Shown here one piece after another: positions 6,664-44,117 of a stretch of DNA of 51,719 nt. Position 1 is the stretch's first letter. Each line of letters opens with the position of its first letter. The notes below the pieces were generated by a model. It searched no databases. It had not been told where the DNA came from and saw nothing but the letters and a program-made list of their open reading frames with translations. This stretch comes from a virus (Duplodnaviria; Heunggongvirae; Uroviricota; Caudoviricetes). The stretch lies in IMG/VR virus record IMGVR_UViG_3300013094_000021; one strand, written 5' to 3'. The position numbers and the translations under genes are program-made.

Positions 6664-9597
6664 TTACCTTACCGGACAGGCTCCTCCTGTGCATTCAAGA
6701 GAGTCAATCACAGACGACTCCGTATTGATTCTAGAAACCGATTTAAGAGAGTTTTTGTATGAATTATACTCTTTCTCCGTGATTGGAATCAAAACAGCTT
6801 GGTCGAAGCCGTGACCAGAATGAAGAAGGAATGAAACTGTTTTAATATAAGAGTTATAGTTTGATTTTAGCCAGTCCTTTATTTTTGAAACATCTCCATG
6901 TTTGTAGTAAACGGTGTTTGAAACCGCTTGGTCTGCCCAGCAGGTTTGAAGAGATTTAATCCTGTTTAATTGGTCAACGCAGTCTGAATCTGACTCAAGC
7001 TTAGTGTTATCATCAAAAGAACATGGAAAATAAACTACAGAAATATCGTGGTTTAATTTTTTATCCAATTGAATTTCTGGTTCTATTCTGTATCCAGCGT
7101 CTCTTAAAGACGGAATTAAAGAATCCATAGAAGAAAACCTTACTGTTCTATAGTGAAATTTTGAATATCCGGGATTGGCTCCGGGTGTGGAGCCTGACAA
7201 TAGTGATAGCGTTCCACTGGGCTTTACAACGGTAAGCCTAATTGACTCTGGAAAGTTATTTGCTTTGGAGTATTCTTTATCAAAAGCTCTTAGATTTTTA
7301 TATACAAAGTCGCACCATTCTTCATAATTTTTGTTCTGGCAAACTCCTGTTACGCCAAGTCCAAGTCTCATTTTTTTATGAATAATGTTATTGGATGATT
7401 CAAATAAATATTCGCCAGAAGAAATAGCTTTTTGAGTTTTATAAAGCAATATTGAAATATCTAGCATTTCTTCCTTTGATGTGATGTTATTCATTGCTAG
7501 TTCAGCTAAGTTGCATTGATAAGTCAAAACATTGCCAAAAACAGCCATGTGTCTGTCTTTTTCTTCAAAACAATAAACGTCCTCTAGTTTTTCTAATTTT
7601 GTTATTTTTTTAATATTTTGCCACTTTCCTTTTGTTTTGGCAGTATGGCTATTTTTTGTATTTAATCTACGACAAGGAATTAATTCGCAATCTGTTATAT
7701 ACAAATAATATAAATCTTTATTTCTGATAGATAAATTTGTTTTTGAACCTTTGGTTTGACAAAGATTTACAGAGCTTTTAATTCCGCATTTTGATAATAG
7801 TAATTGAATTCTAGAAGCCCTAGAAAATTCGGATATATATATTCTAATTCCGCCGGAAGACGTATTGGAGCCGTCCGCGTCTGCAAGTCCAGCTATAAAA
7901 TTAAGTATAGATTCTTTATCCCAAGAAAATAACTGATTTATAGCTTCCGAATCATTTTTTAAAGGATTTACTAATTCTAAGTCTATGTATTTAGTGACGT
8001 TTAATTTTTTAAAAGGAATTCTATATTTATCATCCGGTGGAGAGAATTTAATTTCGTGACCTTTAACTTGGCATTTAAAATCTTTTTCTCCAAAAAGTAT
8101 AACTTTTGCTACATTTTTATCAATGTGTCCGTCTCCAACTGTAAATCCCAAAGTATATGCGTCTTTTTCATATTTTTTACCAGACGAATACTCTATTTTA
8201 AATGGCTCTGAATGAACTGAAAACCCATCTGAAATTTTTATATCACATAAAGCAACTTTTTTATAATCCTTCTCAAACCTGTTCTTTATTGAAAATTTAT
8301 GGTTTTTATTGCAATCTAAAAAAGAACCATCAGAAAATGAAACTCTATAAATTTCATTATTTATTCCTGTTTTTCTAGGGATAACTTTTGACCATTTTTC
8401 TCCATTCCAAACCTCTATTTCTTTATTAACGCAATCTTTTATATAAGAAAACCCATCTTTTGTAATAAGTGGCGTATTTCCAGATACGCAAGCCTCTTTG
8501 TCAGCTAGAAGAGCTTCGGCGCACGGATTGCAACCAATAATGTCCTCATCGTTAAGATTTAATCCATTAATTTCGGTTTCGCCAATTCTTCCAAATTTTT
8601 TTGAATTCTTTAAGTTAAATAATCCGTATGGCTCTCCCCCTCCGGTTTCGTATGGTTCCCAAAATTTATTTAAAATATGATTATAATCATTACATATTGA
8701 GCTATTATTTGAATTACTTCTATAAGCTGGAATTGTAATATCCAAATCCCATCTTTTAAGATTTAAATACCCAACATCGTCAACGTCACCAAGTAGAATT
8801 ATGGCTGTTCTTCTTATGCCGCCGGATTTAACTACTTGTCCGCCGCAACAAATGATATCGGCAACGTCTTGGGTTCTTAATTTTTTGCCTTCTCTTGATT
8901 CTAGTATTTTACAAAGCTCTTGGCATCCATCCATGAGTGGTTTTGGGCCGGGAGCTATTCCACCAAATGTTTTTAACGGTTCGCCAGCGGGCCTAATACA
9001 CACATTTGAATAAGAAAATGATTCACCTGTTTCAAGGTATGATTTTAAAATTTTTCTCCAAAGGTATGCCCATCCTTCCTTACTATCTGGAACTATAAAG
9101 TCTGCGTCCTTTGTATTTTTCATTACACATTTGACGCCTTTTTTAACTCTCGGAAGTTCTTGAGTGTATTCTCTGGAAATATTGCAACCAACCCCTCCTC
9201 CAAGCATTGATTCGGTAAATATAAAGTAAAAATCGTCTATATTTGAAACTTTTGTAACCCAACAATTAAGAAGAGAGTCGTTACCGATTAAATCAACAGT
9301 TGGAGTCCCTAGTTGCCAAAGACCTCTTCCAGAAAAGAAGCCTTTAAGGTCGAACATATAACTGTAAAGCCTTTCCGCCTCTTCTTTTGTGTATTTGGCT
9401 CCTATTTTTTGAGCGCCATTGATACATCTAGCTATTGTTTCCCACCATTCCTCTTGGAGTCCTAACTTATTTTTTCTGGAATAAGTTCTTTTATAAACAA
9501 CGTATGACAAATCTCCAAACCCCCAAGGAACTTTTTTATTTGAATATTTTTTTAAAAAATCTTTTGAAAGTATTTCCGATTCGTAATTTTCAATCAT
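6664..9597 (-). CDS. nrdJ: class II (B12-dependent, monomeric-type) ribonucleotide reductase with intein
   Basis: YKRTYSR, SLLNC, GGGVG, GGIRR, NPCAE...CNLAE and KPSGT motifs. Confidence 0.93.
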   Translation of the reverse strand: MIENYESEILSKDFLKKYSNKKVPWGFGDLSYVVYKRTYSRKNKLGLQEEWWETIARCINGAQKIGAKYTKEEAERLYSYMFDLKGFFSGRGLWQLGTPTVDLIGNDSLLNCWVTKVSNIDDFYFIFTESMLGGGVGCNISREYTQELPRVKKGVKCVMKNTKDADFIVPDSKEGWAYLWRKILKSYLETGESFSYSNVCIRPAGEPLKTFGGIAPGPKPLMDGCQELCKILESREGKKLRTQDVADIICCGGQVVKSGGIRRTAIILLGDVDDVGYLNLKRWDLDITIPAYRSNSNNSSICNDYNHILNKFWEPYETGGGEPYGLFNLKNSKKFGRIGETEINGLNLNDEDIIGCNPCAEALLADKEACVSGNTPLITKDGFSYIKDCVNKEIEVWNGEKWSKVIPRKTGINNEIYRVSFSDGSFLDCNKNHKFSIKNRFEKDYKKVALCDIKISDGFSVHSEPFKIEYSSGKKYEKDAYTLGFTVGDGHIDKNVAKVILFGEKDFKCQVKGHEIKFSPPDDKYRIPFKKLNVTKYIDLELVNPLKNDSEAINQLFSWDKESILNFIAGLADADGSNTSSGGIRIYISEFSRASRIQLLLSKCGIKSSVNLCQTKGSKTNLSIRNKDLYYLYITDCELIPCRRLNTKNSHTAKTKGKWQNIKKITKLEKLEDVYCFEEKDRHMAVFGNVLTYQCNLAELAMNNITSKEEMLDISILLYKTQKAISSGEYLFESSNNIIHKKMRLGLGVTGVCQNKNYEEWCDFVYKNLRAFDKEYSKANNFPESIRLTVVKPSGTLSLLSGSTPGANPGYSKFHYRTVRFSSMDSLIPSLRDAGYRIEPEIQLDKKLNHDISVVYFPCSFDDNTKLESDSDCVDQLNRIKSLQTCWADQAVSNTVYYKHGDVSKIKDWLKSNYNSYIKTVSFLLHSGHGFDQAVLIPITEKEYNSYKNSLKSVSRINTESSVIDSLECTGGACPVR
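7516..8490 (-). mobile_element. intein (325 aa) with LAGLIDADG homing endonuclease, inserted before the RNR catalytic Cys
   Basis: Starts CVSGNT, has LGFTVGDG and IAGLADADG, ends DVYCFEE...H...GNVLTYQ followed by CNLAE; removal restores KEA-CNLAE. Confidence 0.9.
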
Positions 9598-12003: not shown

Positions 12004-12604
12004 TTTCGGTTATTGAATCTATTAGCCCTTTTAATTGAAGTCTTACGCAATCATCTCTCATTTGCTCGTTTTCAGTCGTCGGCCAAGTAATTTTATAATC
12101 GCTATTTATTTTAACCAATGGGTCGTTGCTTTCCTCTGTTTTGTTTATAGGTTTCACAAAAGAACCATCTGGAAGTATTCTGGTTACATAGATTAACTTT
12201 CCGCCGATAATTGATTTAATCCAATCTGTTTCGTCGAATTCATATTCTTTGAATCTTATATCGGTGATAACAGGTATATGCTCTGGCTCCAATTGCTCTT
12301 GGATTTTTTTGTTTAAAATTTTAGTCCAGTGAGTGCCTTTGCTTATTTTTCTTTTAATGCCGCCATGAGCCACCATCAAATCTCTTATCAAATTTTTTTC
12401 TTCTGTTATGGATGTAAAAGAAGATATTCCATAATTTTTTCTAGTAAAATCATTTAACTCTATTTTTAATTCATCGGCCAAAGCGAATCTTTGTATTTTG
12501 ATAGATTTTTCATTTAAAATCCTTTGCAAAGATTTAAACAGAGAGTCTTTTCCAGAAAGAGCTACTCCACCAATTCCAATTATTTTTATTTTACTTTTTG
12601 ACAT
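11996..12604 (-). CDS. deoxynucleoside monophosphate kinase
   Basis: GIGGVALSGKDS P-loop, ALADELK and ITDIRF..E. Confidence 0.8.
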   Translation of the reverse strand: MSKSKIKIIGIGGVALSGKDSLFKSLQRILNEKSIKIQRFALADELKIELNDFTRKNYGISSFTSITEEKNLIRDLMVAHGGIKRKISKGTHWTKILNKKIQEQLEPEHIPVITDIRFKEYEFDETDWIKSIIGGKLIYVTRILPDGSFVKPINKTEESNDPLVKINSDYKITWPTTENEQMRDDCVRLQLKGLIDSITENE

Positions 12605-13037
12605 CTTTTTTAACTACATTTTTTAAGTGGTTTTCGGCGTATAAATTTATTATTGATATAAGAATATCCAAATCAATATCTTTTATTTCAAGAGGGTCTG
12701 TTAAATAGCCTTCATGCTCCTTTGAATTCTCAAGGAATGAGTTGCATATTTCCGCTATTTTAAATCCAATGGAGCCATCAATCTCAACAGATTGTTTATT
12801 ATTTTCCAAACTTGTTTTTAAAATCCAAGTAATTAGCGTTTCGCCGGATTTGCTTTTCCCCACATATTTAGTGAGGAACCCTCTTTTTTCAAGATTTTCC
12901 AATCCGTGAAAAATTGCGGCCTCGCATTCGCTTTCTGGAGAGTCTCCGTCAAAAATTTTATTGAACTCCTCGTTATTAATAGAGTGATTGGACATGAAAT
13001 AACCAATCAACGAATACTCGGCGTCTTTTATTGTCAT
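12591..13037 (-). CDS. hypothetical protein
   Basis: ORF track; overlaps co-oriented neighbours. Confidence 0.7.
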   Translation of the reverse strand: MTIKDAEYSLIGYFMSNHSINNEEFNKIFDGDSPESECEAAIFHGLENLEKRGFLTKYVGKSKSGETLITWILKTSLENNKQSVEIDGSIGFKIAEICNSFLENSKEHEGYLTDPLEIKDIDLDILISIINLYAENHLKNVVKKDVKK

Positions 13038-13225
13038 TTTTTTAGTATTTTTTTAGATAAAATTGATGCTTGCTCCAAATTTTCCATTAAAATTGATACA
13101 AATTGTCTATTGGAACATAGTTTTAGCCACTCATCTTTTGAAAAAGATGCTCCAAATTCCTTCAGTTCTAAAACTGTTGGCGGCTCTTCTATTTTTTCCA
13201 AACTTAATGCTATTTTTGTAGGCAT
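13034..13225 (-). CDS. hypothetical protein
   Basis: ORF track; ATGA-type overlap with next gene. Confidence 0.65.
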   Translation of the reverse strand: MPTKIALSLEKIEEPPTVLELKEFGASFSKDEWLKLCSNRQFVSILMENLEQASILSKKILKK

Positions 13226-13296
13226 TTGAATTTAATATACTTATATTAACATTAAAACTAATAATAGTCAATAGAAAAAATTATTTGTTTTTATTC

Positions 13297-13324
13297 TTTA
13301 CTTTTGTATGTTAGATAATATAAT
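13297..13324 (+). promoter_or_regulatory. sigma70-like promoter upstream of candidate large ncRNA
   Basis: TTTACT-N16-TATAAT. Confidence 0.45.
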
Positions 13325-13329
13325 TGATT

Positions 13330-13860
13330 ATCCGACTAACATAATCGGGAAAAGGTAGTCGCGGATTATTGAAGCTGACAATCCATTATGTTATTAATTC
13401 GGCTGATTAGCTAGGAAGACCTCCGAGTGATTCAGCCGGATTCCAAATTTTAAAGACTATATCCGAAGTAGTTTTTATTATTAAGCAATTTCGGACGACT
13501 TGACCCAAAACATAAGAAACGCCGAAAGGTGTAAATTTAACTCGCCCAGCGCGGAGAGAGAAGGGGAGTCGTTAAACAAACAAAAGAATGATGAAACTTG
13601 CCAAAGACGATATAAAAAATACTTTGGTAAAAGCGCATCAACAAGAGTATTTATTTAATTATTTACTTGCGTAATTGTCCATTACGACTTAATTAACTAA
13701 TTATTCATGTGAGGTGGTGTATAATAAACCCCACCGACAGATAAGACTAACACAACGGACGCAAAGGAGTCTCTCGTCCTCTGTATGCTTACAGTATTAT
13801 AGTGTTATTCATTCCTGCTCGCATGGAAGAAGTGTATTCAAATCGGTTAAATGCTTGAAT
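13330..13860 (+). ncRNA. candidate large structured ncRNA, family unassigned
   Basis: No ORF of 60 aa or more, GC-enriched, many hairpins, one GAAA-capped stem with a G-U pair (13519-13532) favouring the + strand. Confidence 0.55.
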
Positions 13861-14097
13861 ATTAAAAGTTTATTCTCTTTCAAATAAAAGATTCTCTTCC
13901 ATTTGTTTTCAATAATAAAAAAATAAAAAAAGTTTTCCAACCGTCGAAGGCTTTAAATCCTTCGTAGGCTCGGCGGATAAAATAATTTATTCAATTTATA
14001 TTCAATTATTTGTTTCACATAAAATTGATTAATAATTGTGGATACAAAGATTAATAAAATTCTTTACTTTACAAAATTTCTATATTATAATATCGTA

Positions 14098-15051
14098 ATG
14101 GAATTTTCAGGTTCTTATAATAAAGAGTATATTAAAAATATCCTTATTTCAAATGGCTATCCAGTTAGGGAGGGCTCCGGCTATATATCCACGGCGGCTT
14201 TATGGAGAGGCGGCTCAGACCCTTCTTCTTGTGTAGTTTATTACAACGATAATTTTGCTGCTGACTACGTTGACGGTAAAAGCTATAAGATAAAAGATTT
14301 CATTTCTTTGGTTTGCAATATAAAAGACCAAGCATCCTTGGATAAGCTTCTTAAAGAGTCTAACTTTCAAATAAAATCAACGCCAGAATACGAAAAGATA
14401 AAGGTTCCGAAATTTTTTGATAAAGGAATTATTAATAACATAATACCGAAATATGATTATTTCTTGAAAAGAGGAATATCTGAAAACACTTTATCAGAAT
14501 TCAAATCCGGCCTCTATTCTGGAGATATAAAGTATTTCAACAATAGGTATGTTTTTCCTTGTTTTAATAGTAAGGGTGATATATTAATGGTCGCCGGAAG
14601 AGACGTTACAGAAAAAAATAAGATTTACTGGCTACTAAAGGGTCAAAAAAAAGACGCCGTTTATCCTGCTTTTATAAATTCAGATATAATAAAAGACAAG
14701 AAATCAGTGTTTTTAGTAGAAGGAATAGGGGACGCATTAACTCTTTGGGAGTGCGGAATAAAGAATGTGCTGGTTTTATTCGGCGTTGATGTTAGTCTAT
14801 CTATTATAAATTTTCTTTTAAAGGTAAATGTTAAAAATATATATATATCAACTAATAATGATTCTTTAAGAGGCGACAAGGAATCTAATGTTGGAAATTT
14901 GGCGGCTAAAAAAATAAAAACTAAACTATCTAGGTATTTCGACGACAGATTTATAAAAATTGTCCTTCCTTCAAAAAAGAAAGACTGGAATGAAACCCTG
15001 ATAAATTTTGGAAAAGATGATATAATTAAAGAATTGAATAAATATGAGTAA
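14098..15051 (+). CDS. dnaG: DNA primase (TOPRIM)
   Basis: YFLKRGIS, RYVFP and FLVEGIGDALTL..G..NV..LFG; ATG 14098 follows a TATAAT box. Confidence 0.85.
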   Translation: MEFSGSYNKEYIKNILISNGYPVREGSGYISTAALWRGGSDPSSCVVYYNDNFAADYVDGKSYKIKDFISLVCNIKDQASLDKLLKESNFQIKSTPEYEKIKVPKFFDKGIINNIIPKYDYFLKRGISENTLSEFKSGLYSGDIKYFNNRYVFPCFNSKGDILMVAGRDVTEKNKIYWLLKGQKKDAVYPAFINSDIIKDKKSVFLVEGIGDALTLWECGIKNVLVLFGVDVSLSIINFLLKVNVKNIYISTNNDSLRGDKESNVGNLAAKKIKTKLSRYFDDRFIKIVLPSKKKDWNETLINFGKDDIIKELNKYE

Positions 15052-26952: not shown

Positions 26953-27374
26953 GGGCGGTTACTGGTTTCGACTATTGTAATCAGTAAATTAATGCAGGTC
27001 GTAGAGCATTGGGCTACGAAAAAAGATGCACAAAATAAATGCTAAAAATGCGTTGAAAAACGCCGTTGCGAAAGTTAAAGAAGTTTACGCTTCTGCTTGT
27101 GAATCGGTTTCCGCCGCTTTGCAGGTTCCTAGCATGGCAATGTCTGTAGCTTAAATTACAGCCGATTAACTGAATGACCCAGATATTTTAGTTAATCGTC
27201 ATATTTCTGGAAAAACGTATATGGATAAATATACGAAAAACAACTATCCAATATTTTTGAAAAAGTTTGTTGATTTAAATGTTCAAAAATTAATCGGTTA
27301 AAAATTAACTAAACCTGTAGAATTAGTTTGTTTATTGTAATAGGACATGGGTTCAACTCCCATACCGTCCACCA
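26953..27374 (+). ncRNA. ssrA: tmRNA
   Basis: GGGCGGT/ACCGTCC-ACCA acceptor with G3-U70, GGTTTCGAC 5' motif, T-arm ATGGG-TTCAACT-CCCAT, helix 2 and pk1 pairings, ATAAAT-GCT resume context. Confidence 0.95.
27041..27154 (+). other. tmRNA tag reading frame (A)AKNALKNAVAKVKEVYASACESVSAALQVPSMAMSVA*
   Basis: Translated from the GCT after pk1/ATAAAT to TAA. Confidence 0.8.
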
Positions 27375-27417: not shown

Positions 27418-28914
27418 ATGTTTTATCCAGAATCTCTAGTTAGCATTCGCACCGAAAGTCAATTTCTCGGCGGACTTATAAAAAATCCAAAATTCTTAGT
27501 CGAAATGGATTCTTTTGTGAGTGAAAAGCTTTTTTATCACAAAATACATAAAACCTGTTTTTCAATTCTATCTGGTTTGGTTTATAACGGAAAAGAAGTT
27601 AATCGAGTAATACTGGCGGAACAAGCGAAGCAACTTGGCATAAACCAATTCGAGGATATAAACCTTTTCGAGTATTTAGACAGCATATCTTTTACAAATG
27701 TCAATTTAAAAGGTCTGGAAGAGCTTTCCGGCGAGCTTTTAAAATTAAGTATTCGCAGAGAGTTATGGGACAACACAAGCGCAATACAGCATTTTATTAA
27801 GGAAAATGGCGACAGAGAGTTAGACGAACTGATAAACGGAGTTGACGGAATTTACGGTTCAATGGATTTAAATTATAAATTTAGTGACTACCCGAAGGAT
27901 GTTTATGCCGACATAGAATCAATAATACACGAAATAGCTAAAAATCCAATAGAGGAAACCGGACTAAAAACTCCTTTTGAATTATTCAATAAATGGTTCG
28001 GCGGTCTTTGCTCTGGCGATGGAGTCTATGTAACAACAGGCTCAAGTGGCGGCGGAAAGTCATGTTATTTGTTTAATATGGCTAAAGGAACCGCTGAATT
28101 AAACAACTGCAAGGCGTTAGTTCTTGATACCGAAATGTCATTTAAGATGAATATGTTTCGCGCGGCTTCTGCCGGAACTCAGGTCAATCAGTGGTTTCTC
28201 AAAACCGGAAACTGGATTAAAAGAGATGATTTGAGCAAAAAGGTTTCATCTGGCCTTTCAAAATTAAAGGAGTATAAGGGTTCGATATATCATCAATACA
28301 TACCAAATAAAGAAATAAAAGAAGTCCTTTCTATGGCTAAAAGATGGTATTACAAAGAATGCGGAAAAGGAAATCCAGCCATCATAATTTATGACTATTT
28401 AAAGATAACGTCTGATTTAGATAAAAACAGGCAAGAATGGCAACAATTGGGCGACAAAATAAGTTATCTAAATGAACTTGGTCACGAATTGAACATACCG
28501 ATTTATACCGGCGCACAGCAGAATAGGACTGCTTTTGAGGCTAACGGAGCAAGAAGGGACGACTCAACTACTGTTGGCGGCTCCGACAGAATACAGCAAT
28601 ACTCCTGCTTTAATTCAATCTTTAGAGAGAAGACTCTTGAAGAGATATCTGAACACGGAAATTCATTCGGAACTCATGTTTTGATACCTATTAAAAGCAG
28701 CAGAACATCAGGCGTTGATAATTTCGATTTGAATAAAAACGTCGAAATAATAGACTCATCTACCGGAAAGAAAAAATGGAAAAGAAACTTTCTATGCTAT
28801 GAGATTTCAAATTACCTAGTTTCAGAAAAAGGATGCTATGGAGATGTTGTGAAGTCGCTTGGTTTTAATAAACCACTTCAAAAAGAAAAAAAAGAAAATT
28901 CTATACAAATTTAA
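27418..28914 (+). CDS. dnaB: replicative DnaB-like helicase
   Basis: E..FLGGLI, GLKTPF, GSSGGGKS, DTEMS, YDYL, GAQQNR and GSDRI.Q. Confidence 0.9.
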   Translation: MFYPESLVSIRTESQFLGGLIKNPKFLVEMDSFVSEKLFYHKIHKTCFSILSGLVYNGKEVNRVILAEQAKQLGINQFEDINLFEYLDSISFTNVNLKGLEELSGELLKLSIRRELWDNTSAIQHFIKENGDRELDELINGVDGIYGSMDLNYKFSDYPKDVYADIESIIHEIAKNPIEETGLKTPFELFNKWFGGLCSGDGVYVTTGSSGGGKSCYLFNMAKGTAELNNCKALVLDTEMSFKMNMFRAASAGTQVNQWFLKTGNWIKRDDLSKKVSSGLSKLKEYKGSIYHQYIPNKEIKEVLSMAKRWYYKECGKGNPAIIIYDYLKITSDLDKNRQEWQQLGDKISYLNELGHELNIPIYTGAQQNRTAFEANGARRDDSTTVGGSDRIQQYSCFNSIFREKTLEEISEHGNSFGTHVLIPIKSSRTSGVDNFDLNKNVEIIDSSTGKKKWKRNFLCYEISNYLVSEKGCYGDVVKSLGFNKPLQKEKKENSIQI

Positions 28915-37684: not shown

Positions 37685-37761
37685 ACGGCAATAGCTAAGT
37701 TGAGAGAAGCATTAGTCTCCAAAATTAACATAGATGGGTTCGACTCCCATTTGCCGTGCCA
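37685..37761 (+). tRNA. tRNA-Trp(CCA)
   Basis: ACGGCAA/TTGCCGT acceptor, loop CT-CCA-AA, GCCA end. Confidence 0.85.
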
Positions 37762-42771: not shown

Positions 42772-44117
42772 GTCAACAACATCTAGTCTAAAGCCATAGA
42801 TGCTTGTAAGCTACCGAAGCCTACGATTGGCGAGTTGACTTTCGCCTGCCACGCATAATAATCGCTTATTGAGCATGGGAGTTTGGAACGTAGAGCAATG
42901 TTACACGCAGCGTTACAATCCGCATGGAGTATTTGCCCGTCTTTTCCGATATACCTACCGCCGATACGCTTTCCATCTAATTTGCCTGTGCGATGGTCAA
43001 TTTGACTCGTATATGCGGGACTAACCGTTATCACCTGTTTATTATTCAGGAGTGCCTTATAGGTAAGAATCCGTCTAAGTTCAAACATTGGAACTTGACT
43101 AATCCTATTTTTATTTTGATACTTATGTTTTTTAACCTTAATAGATTTAAGATTCTCCAATACAATCGTATCAGCCCTTGTATCGGAAATTATTTTATTA
43201 GCTAAATGGTGACTAAAATTCTTGTTTTTATTCGATTCTTTGCGTTTGAGTTTTTTTAGTTGACGTTTTGCTGATTTAGAGTCTTTGGATTTTGACTGTA
43301 ATTTACGCTTATTAAACCTTAATTTTCTCTTTTCACCATTAAACTTCTTATCTATGTATAGATTACCTTCACTGGTAGCGGCATTAACGCGGCAACCCAA
43401 ATCAATTCCTAACGCAAGTTTCTTTTGCGATAAAACCTCTGGAATATCAAAAGTTAAACATATCCAAACTTCTCCATCTTTTTCAAACAAAAGCGGGTCA
43501 CAAAAACGATATTTGCTAATTAACTCTTGTAATTTAGGGTAAATATAAGGGGAACATTTGACTCGTTTTTCTAAACTTATGATACTGAAAATACCATTTT
43601 TATACGAATACGTTCTTTTGTCTAAACGGATTGAAAGTTTCTTCTTTTCGGGCGGTTTATCTAATTTTTGCTTATTGGATTTAATACTCCGATATGCTGA
43701 CAAAACAGATTGTTCTGCACTTATCACTACCTGACTTGGAATTTCAGGTTGACAACTCCTAAACTTAGTATAAAATTGTCCATGCAACAAAACGATAGAA
43801 TTTTTGGGAATATTAAACTTAACTTTGGAACATTCATTCCAAGCGAAACGCTGGCTTTCGAGCATACTGACAATCTTATTCTTGTCAGAATCGCTCTGGA
43901 AAACCAATCTCGTATTATATGTTAATTTACTCACTACAATATATTATACACGGAAAAAGACGAAATATCCAATTTATTTTCATATACTGAAAGATTTTCT
44001 TGACTTTTGAGTAAAAATAGTGTAAATTAATAAAGATAATTATGCTAAACTCACGCAAATATTTTTTCTCATATCCTAGCCTAAAGGCATAGGATTTTCC
44101 GAAAAAAGAGACATTTT
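42772..44117 (-). mobile_element. non-autonomous IS200/IS605-family element (TnpB only)
   Basis: On the minus strand: TTCAT | left end with GAAA guide and ATCCTATGCC-TTTA-GGCTAGGAT hairpin; right end CAAG plus hairpin ending TTGAC; both guide/cleavage tetranucleotide pairs fit the IS608 pairing rule. Confidence 0.75.
42783..43934 (-). CDS. tnpB: TnpB RNA-guided endonuclease
   Basis: RuvC I GIDLG, II VLENL, III HADCNAA.NI; Zn-finger cysteines absent (TSQIDHRTG). Confidence 0.92.
   Translation of the reverse strand: MSKLTYNTRLVFQSDSDKNKIVSMLESQRFAWNECSKVKFNIPKNSIVLLHGQFYTKFRSCQPEIPSQVVISAEQSVLSAYRSIKSNKQKLDKPPEKKKLSIRLDKRTYSYKNGIFSIISLEKRVKCSPYIYPKLQELISKYRFCDPLLFEKDGEVWICLTFDIPEVLSQKKLALGIDLGCRVNAATSEGNLYIDKKFNGEKRKLRFNKRKLQSKSKDSKSAKRQLKKLKRKESNKNKNFSHHLANKIISDTRADTIVLENLKSIKVKKHKYQNKNRISQVPMFELRRILTYKALLNNKQVITVSPAYTSQIDHRTGKLDGKRIGGRYIGKDGQILHADCNAACNIALRSKLPCSISDYYAWQAKVNSPIVGFGSLQASMALD

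Follow-up and report, generated by a model that had tools for sequence, protein, structure and literature searches.

A ColE1-type primer forms a persistent RNA-DNA hybrid in which a cut by RNase H gives the primer, and an antisense transcript, RNA I, covers the 5' end of the primer RNA. The ColE1 primer RNA itself is folded and 550 nt long (PMC5043065). Origins of phage T4 are composed of a promoter and an AT-rich element, often at strand switches, and their R-loops require ~100 bp and no specific RNA sequence (PMC3016281). Mini-hairpins of the type GCG(N or NN)AGC mark primase sites in G4, St-1 and RSF1010 (PMC13037366), and the large RNAs ROOL and GOLLD are often encoded near tRNA islands (10.1101/2024.12.08.627333). 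The 10,006 candidate viral RNAs of an earlier study do not exceed 151 nt (PMC10690425). In the literature we found no description of a fold-dependent primer RNA in a phage. Here we analyze a 51,719-nt stretch of DNA (the window) from an uncultured phage, nearly all of which was found in two lake-water metagenome runs, its possible source. A gap between its divergent gene blocks is very likely the site of a gene for a non-coding RNA, a predicted transcript of ~510 nt with an extensive fold, and looks like a candidate replication origin of this phage.

The gap and its predicted transcript

The genes of the window include those for a tmRNA, ~20 tRNAs, ribonucleotide reductase, primase and thyX. 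Leftward genes end at 13225 and rightward genes begin at 14098, and the intervening gap of 872 nt is the point where transcription switches direction. The first rightward gene encodes a Toprim DNA primase (14098-15051, plus strand; Pfam Toprim_2, PHROG 47) that has no close cultured relative. It has its own promoter (14063-14091, plus strand), whose -10 element is followed after 7 nt by the ATG, a layout also seen in relatives; its mRNA is therefore leaderless. On the other side, the leftward block has a divergent promoter (13243-13271, minus strand) that was found in most relatives. The clade-conserved winged-helix protein adjoining the gap (12591-13037, minus strand; model pLDDT 82) is a candidate gap-binding protein; its structure matches were generic (Z 7-8) and none was initiator-specific. 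A second small clade-conserved gene beside the gap (13034-13225, minus strand) encodes 63 residues that we could not place in any recognized family.

Other parts of the window also have unusual features. The tmRNA (26953-27374), which lies directly 5' of the DnaB helicase gene (27418-28914), has a predicted tag reading frame of unusual length. The ribonucleotide reductase is of the class II type (6664-9597, minus strand) and contains a LAGLIDADG domain, probably an intein. A transposase-family gene of the IS605/TnpB type (PHROG 506; 42783-43934, minus strand) lies within the tRNA cluster, in the orientation opposite to that of the tRNAs.

Searches with the primase identified nine relatives, namely L005 (taken together with the near-identical L006, L330 and L331), L007, L009/L010, L011, L092, L173, L250, L251 and L252. 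In all ten clade phages read, the window and these nine, the primase operon is preceded by 480 nt or more of gap, and the conserved leftward genes are the same in eight of the nine relatives; the L252 contig stops short of them. Sister-clade phages lack the gap, their primase gene lying immediately behind that for DnaB or thyX. A metagenome scan returned only sister-clade loci of this gapless kind, and blastn against cultured phages gave only chance matches.

As originally predicted, a sigma70-type promoter precedes the structured region (13297-13324, plus strand), agreeing with the consensus at 10 of 12 positions. It belongs to the main promoter class of this genome and has a 12-nt stretch around its -35 element in common with the primase promoter; most relatives have an inward promoter at the equivalent position. 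Twelve of the 22 plus-strand promoters matched by the same pattern, that of the primase among them, have an ATG 6-9 nt past the -10 element, whereas this one has none behind it. From membership in the main class combined with the missing ATG we therefore infer a non-coding transcript from about 13331 (start site predicted at ~13330-13331). The predicted RNA, of ~510 nt, would extend over 13330-13845 on the plus strand; the prediction is based on folding scores and on homology to L173, L250 and L007, its ends are approximate, and the 3' end is uncertain. Two earlier descriptions of the region need qualification. Its GC enrichment is real in comparison with the window but modest (38% vs 33%), with flanks at 14-18%, and it is not literally free of open reading frames, since mechanical ones of 52 aa (TTG start, 13500-13658) and 57 aa (GTG start, 13714-13887) lie within the gap. 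The 52-aa frame was rejected as a gene: its L250 homologue runs into a stop after 7 codons, and the differences from L173 are mostly non-synonymous.

Fold and conservation of the RNA

In global folding, the plus strand of 13330-13860 exceeds its shuffles with a z of -2.72, against -1.20 for the minus strand; local folding with a 150-nt span limit gave -4.4 and -2.8, respectively. Plus strands folded better than minus strands in all six gaps tested. All stems of the original prediction could be located. Three are exact and fully paired, at 13337/13385 (9 bp), 13400/13432 (7 bp, extending to 11) and 13494/13566 (8 bp), and the remainder lie at 13462-13495, 13519-13532, 13670-13686, 13713-13735, 13757-13779 and 13941-13976. 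The proposed competition or pseudoknot at the 5' end also agrees with the sequence: a hairpin at 13330-13366 shares 2 nt with the 13337 stem, and a 7-bp pseudoknot between the loop of this hairpin and 13385-13391 would still be possible. Missing from the earlier list was the strongest 3' helix, 13704-13713 with 13818-13827.

The predicted RNA can be divided into several parts that differ in conservation. The 5' domain (13330-13495, plus strand), which comprises the alternative or pseudoknotted first hairpin, an 11-bp hairpin at 13396-13442 and a hairpin at 13462-13495, is unconserved: its alignment with L007 is not significant (z 0.8), and in L173 and L250 an HNH gene sits where it would be. 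The middle part (13589-13703, plus strand) has AU-rich stems at 13589-13640 and 13670-13686; those of relatives differ in sequence, and their correspondence was judged by eye.

Best conserved is a segment of ~95 nt that we call domain A (13494-13590, plus strand), a multiloop whose closing helix has 8+3 bp and a GA bulge. Within it come a hairpin with a GAAA tetraloop, which is optional, another hairpin and a linker rich in A. The identity of domain A to L173 is 88% over 94 nt and to L250 75% over 61 nt, compared with just 65% for the primase genes. A comparison of the two to four sequences that can be aligned found compensatory pairs here. Every cell of the 19 modelled pairs is a standard pair, and five pairs have changed on both sides, four of them in the 11-bp closing helix; a control with slid partners gave 40-49% pairing and zero double changes. 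The unpaired junction bases are nearly invariant while the helix covaries, and the wobble pairs are G-U on the plus strand. The strongest indication that the RNA is functional is this covariation, which comes from three sequences that also served to derive the structure. Because the differences in domain A are compensatory, they point to selection and not just to recent transfer.

The 3' domain (13704-13838, plus strand) consists of a 10-bp long-range helix around a hairpin at 13713-13735, a GACAG motif, a helix at 13748/13807 and two hairpins, and ends in a short conserved tail. No helix of the window is better than its closing helix (13704-13713/13818-13827), and the same is true of the counterpart in L007. 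L007 is colinear with the window overall (z about 7); the signal is clearest over 13700-13845 (z 5.9) and over 13846-14060 (z 5.2). Sequence homology of the 3' domain to L173 has a z of 2.8. In the window, L173 and L250, hand curation finds a hairpin followed by GACAG and then by a long helix around two hairpins. A blind structure-profile comparison of the domain was not significant, and automatic consensus folding recovered little because the alignment is poor; with neither confirming it, the 3' structure is plausible rather than established.

Homologues of the window RNA are thus known from three relatives, L173 and L250 for domain A and L007 for the 3' domain. Models of the two domains had no significant match in L005/L006, L011, L092, L251, L252 or L009/L010; the top match of the 3' model was to L092, in the position anticipated for it (E 0.09). 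In IMG/VR and GTDB, a degenerate pattern for domain A recovered just the known copy; of ~75 other matches, one was fully paired, and it was rejected since its interior is unlike domain A. Nor was domain A found in the four large sister-clade genomes searched. The earlier statement that no known class could be recognized was borne out: a search of Rfam gave no match above gathering thresholds (chance matches at E 0.6-7), the families ROOL, GOLLD, OLE, HEARO, RNase P, SRP, 6S, introns and riboswitches included, nor did the gaps of relatives match. Likenesses seen by eye to the hammerhead, group I intron P7, RNase P and the SAM-I, cobalamin and c-di-GMP riboswitches were rejected as lacking the full motif or an Rfam score.

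We consider it quite probable that a functional plus-strand RNA exists. That the stems are neutral, or matter as DNA structures only, would agree with the small number of alignable sequences (two to four), with the failure of the blind 3' test and with the predicted nature of the transcript. We give this explanation the least weight, as compensatory changes keep every domain A cell paired, its G-U pairs work on the plus strand alone and the folding bias favors that strand in every gap tested. The original proposal of a large non-coding RNA therefore gains from the promoter without a start codon, from domain A covariation with plus-strand polarity and from 3' homology in a relative. The case for a single uniform class of ~530 nt is weaker, since the 5' third is unconserved, the element is a mosaic and the same slot in two relatives contains an unrelated RNA.

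In L173 and L250, domain A follows the stop codon of related HNH genes directly or within 11 nt. These genes (L173:2751-3215, L250:401-859) are leaderless, lie between promoter and domain A, and encode a small ordinary phage protein of 152-154 aa (PHROG 144/119) with a basic C-terminal tail; their promoter occupies the same position as that of the window RNA. Domain A might accordingly be a 3' regulatory or guide-like RNA of a mobile HNH endonuclease element, left behind after loss of the gene, with the rest of the gap a patchwork of remnants. The location of both other copies would be explained in this way, as would the far higher similarity between window and L173 in domain A than in its flanks. 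This origin is nonetheless improbable: the window has no trace of the HNH gene, the 3' domain is common to L007, whose gap has no gene, the different endonuclease of L005 comes without domain A, and the compensatory differences speak for selection. Other endonuclease families are inserted nearby in L005, L007 and L009.

An exchangeable slot with origin-like features

The slot before the primase operon is not always occupied by the same RNA. L251 (890-1330, plus strand) and L009 (9500-9925, minus strand) contain a second structured RNA, unrelated to that of the window, with ~60% identity between the two, a 13-bp terminal hairpin and no Rfam match in L251; 8 of its 45 pairs show double changes (two sequences). 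Relative to L251, the L009 cassette is inverted together with its promoter (z 19-20), which speaks against a primase mRNA leader. That the RNA is a long structured 5' leader or attenuator, controlling the primase operon through read-through, would be suggested by the shared strand of window RNA and primase and by the failure to find an intrinsic terminator between them. We regard it as very improbable, given that in relatives as in the window a separate, leaderless promoter serves the primase, that the predicted RNA would end ~250 nt ahead of the primase start codon and that the L009 cassette is directed away from that gene. At L005:4410-4760 lies what may be a third RNA type, which is nearly invariant over ~300 nt in L331 and L330; the neighboring 5' half of the primase is 80-88% identical in these genomes, which suggests strong selection or recent recombination at this site.

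Several features of the DNA resemble those of origins. The RNA is followed by an AT-rich tract of 18% GC (13846-13935), by analogy with T4 origins a candidate unwinding element (PMC3016281). A second AT-rich tract of 14% GC (13977-14062) may be no more than an upstream element serving the primase promoter. The arrangement of promoter and downstream AT-rich element found at T4 origins is present here, but it is weakly diagnostic in an AT-rich genome, where such tracts also precede ordinary promoters. The GC-rich hairpin between the tracts (13941-13976) exists as originally described; it probably lies outside the RNA and belongs to the AT-rich, origin-like portion. Its own folding score is not significant (z -1.3), and it is not an intrinsic terminator. 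In this portion of the gap relatives have many of their DNA mini-hairpins. GCG(N or NN)AGC mini-hairpins number 17 in 6.3 kb of ten gaps, where shuffles expect 1.6, and 23 in 92.7 kb of flanks, an 11-fold enrichment in a motif that was picked after viewing the gaps and some of whose matches may be RNA tetraloops. They occur in nine of the ten gaps, i.e. in all nine relatives; the gap of the window has no canonical copy, just the non-canonical hairpin at 13941-13976. In L011, L173 and L250, a short element containing a mini-hairpin is conserved ~60 nt ahead of the ATG at the end of the gap, where it directly precedes the -35 element of the primase-operon promoter; the hairpin of the window is different, longer and farther upstream.

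The GC-skew check suggested for an origin gave a suggestive result. Genes directed outward from the gap, to its left and to its right alike, have a skew of about -0.25 at fourfold-degenerate sites, genes directed inward one close to zero (pooled p 0.0025; one conserved gene family, p 0.02; the 148-kb relative, p 0.07). The test pools related genomes and is confounded by their kinship and by the foreign genes among those counted (homing endonucleases, a transposase). Only ~20 kb of the 148-kb relative belong to the leftward block, so that gene orientation does not halve the genome equally. Iteron-type repeats were not found in the gap, which has AT-rich repeats of two or three copies only. The minus-strand sites that could serve as an antisense promoter of the ColE1 RNA I type are weak (9 of 12 positions) and unconserved.

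Possible roles of the RNA

The original prediction set a non-coding RNA against a replication origin, but the evidence agrees with the two together. The reading that we favor, to which we give nearly an even chance, is that the gap is an origin where the RNA acts in cis. It builds on the promoter-like site, the fold, the domain A covariation and the conserved position, and is favored because the slot is always filled by a folded predicted transcript, promoter-driven even where the RNA is unrelated or inverted, and the surrounding DNA has origin-like signals. Host RNA polymerase would start at 13297-13324 and make the ~510-nt non-coding transcript, which would fold while being made. The fold could then keep the transcript on its template, possibly as an R-loop, or open the AT-rich tract just downstream, and the opened single strands would expose hairpin signals for primase and for helicase loading. 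Several observations fit this mechanism less well: T4 R-loops form without a sequence requirement, so an origin does not explain the conserved fold, the 13-bp terminal hairpin of the L251/L009 RNA would suit a released RNA, and the gap of the window lacks a canonical mini-hairpin, iteron-type repeats and a conserved antisense promoter. A more specific version, in which the clade would initiate replication from a folded RNA of ~500 nt, acting as primer or activator in a ColE1-like manner, and exchange it between phages as a modular, invertible cassette, we regard as rather doubtful.

A stand-alone RNA gene acting in trans (as a scaffold, protein sponge or multimer, ROOL/GOLLD-like), carried in an exchangeable cassette between back-to-back units, is the main rival of the cis reading, though unlikely; the gap might then still be an origin with which the RNA is unconnected. 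Such a gene would account for an RNA promoter separate from that of the primase, for a cassette that inverts with its promoter and for invariant junctions beside a covarying helix in domain A, as in tertiary or ligand-binding RNAs, and it would not be out of place in a genome rich in RNA genes. However, ROOL and GOLLD are frequently neighbors of tRNA islands (10.1101/2024.12.08.627333), and this RNA is separated from the tRNA cluster by ~24 kb and invariably adjoins the primase. Most of its sequence also turns over fast, and domain A was not found in the four large sister-clade genomes searched.

Should the RNA act at the origin, as in the favored cis reading, fold-dependent RNA control of replication would extend from plasmids to large phages, and a role would be suggested for some orphan large phage RNAs. 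Should it act in trans, it would still represent a large RNA family not described before, whose compact and well-conserved domain of ~95 nt lends itself to structure probing. Either way, the locus has at least two uncatalogued families of predicted structured RNAs, with few homologues.

Comparison with known systems

Structured RNAs of the HEARO/OMEGA type resemble this one in lying beside an HNH-type gene, here in two relatives; in contrast to them, there is no Rfam match, the HNH partner (PHROG 144/119) is not IscB/IsrB and the gene is absent from the window. The same mini-hairpin motif that provides primase signals in G4, St-1 and RSF1010 is enriched in the gaps of the clade (PMC13037366), where its recognition by primase is putative; this phage, however, is double-stranded, and the window has the non-canonical hairpin alone. 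ROOL, GOLLD and OLE share with the RNA predicted here the character of large, multi-helix, phage-encoded RNAs without an assigned function (10.1101/2024.12.08.627333), from which it differs in having no Rfam match at E up to 10, in its mosaic, fast-evolving sequence and, as regards ROOL and GOLLD, in that the nearest tRNA is at 37685. T4 oriF and oriG likewise combine a promoter with a subsequent AT-rich element near a switch in transcription direction (PMC3016281), but the predicted transcript here is five times longer and its fold covaries.

The likeness to ColE1 RNA II is one of architecture, in which no sequence relationship is expected. Promoter, length and fold agree: a host-polymerase promoter would give a folded non-coding transcript of ~500-550 nt that ends at a candidate origin (PMC5043065), where priming is presumed. 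The differences are that the window represents a phage of lytic type with its own primase and helicase and has no conserved antisense RNA I promoter. Since that promoter is lacking and no Rfam family matches, the most that can be claimed is that the RNA may work like that of ColE1. The RNA constitutes a new family within a broadly known kind, that of large phage non-coding RNAs and origin transcripts.
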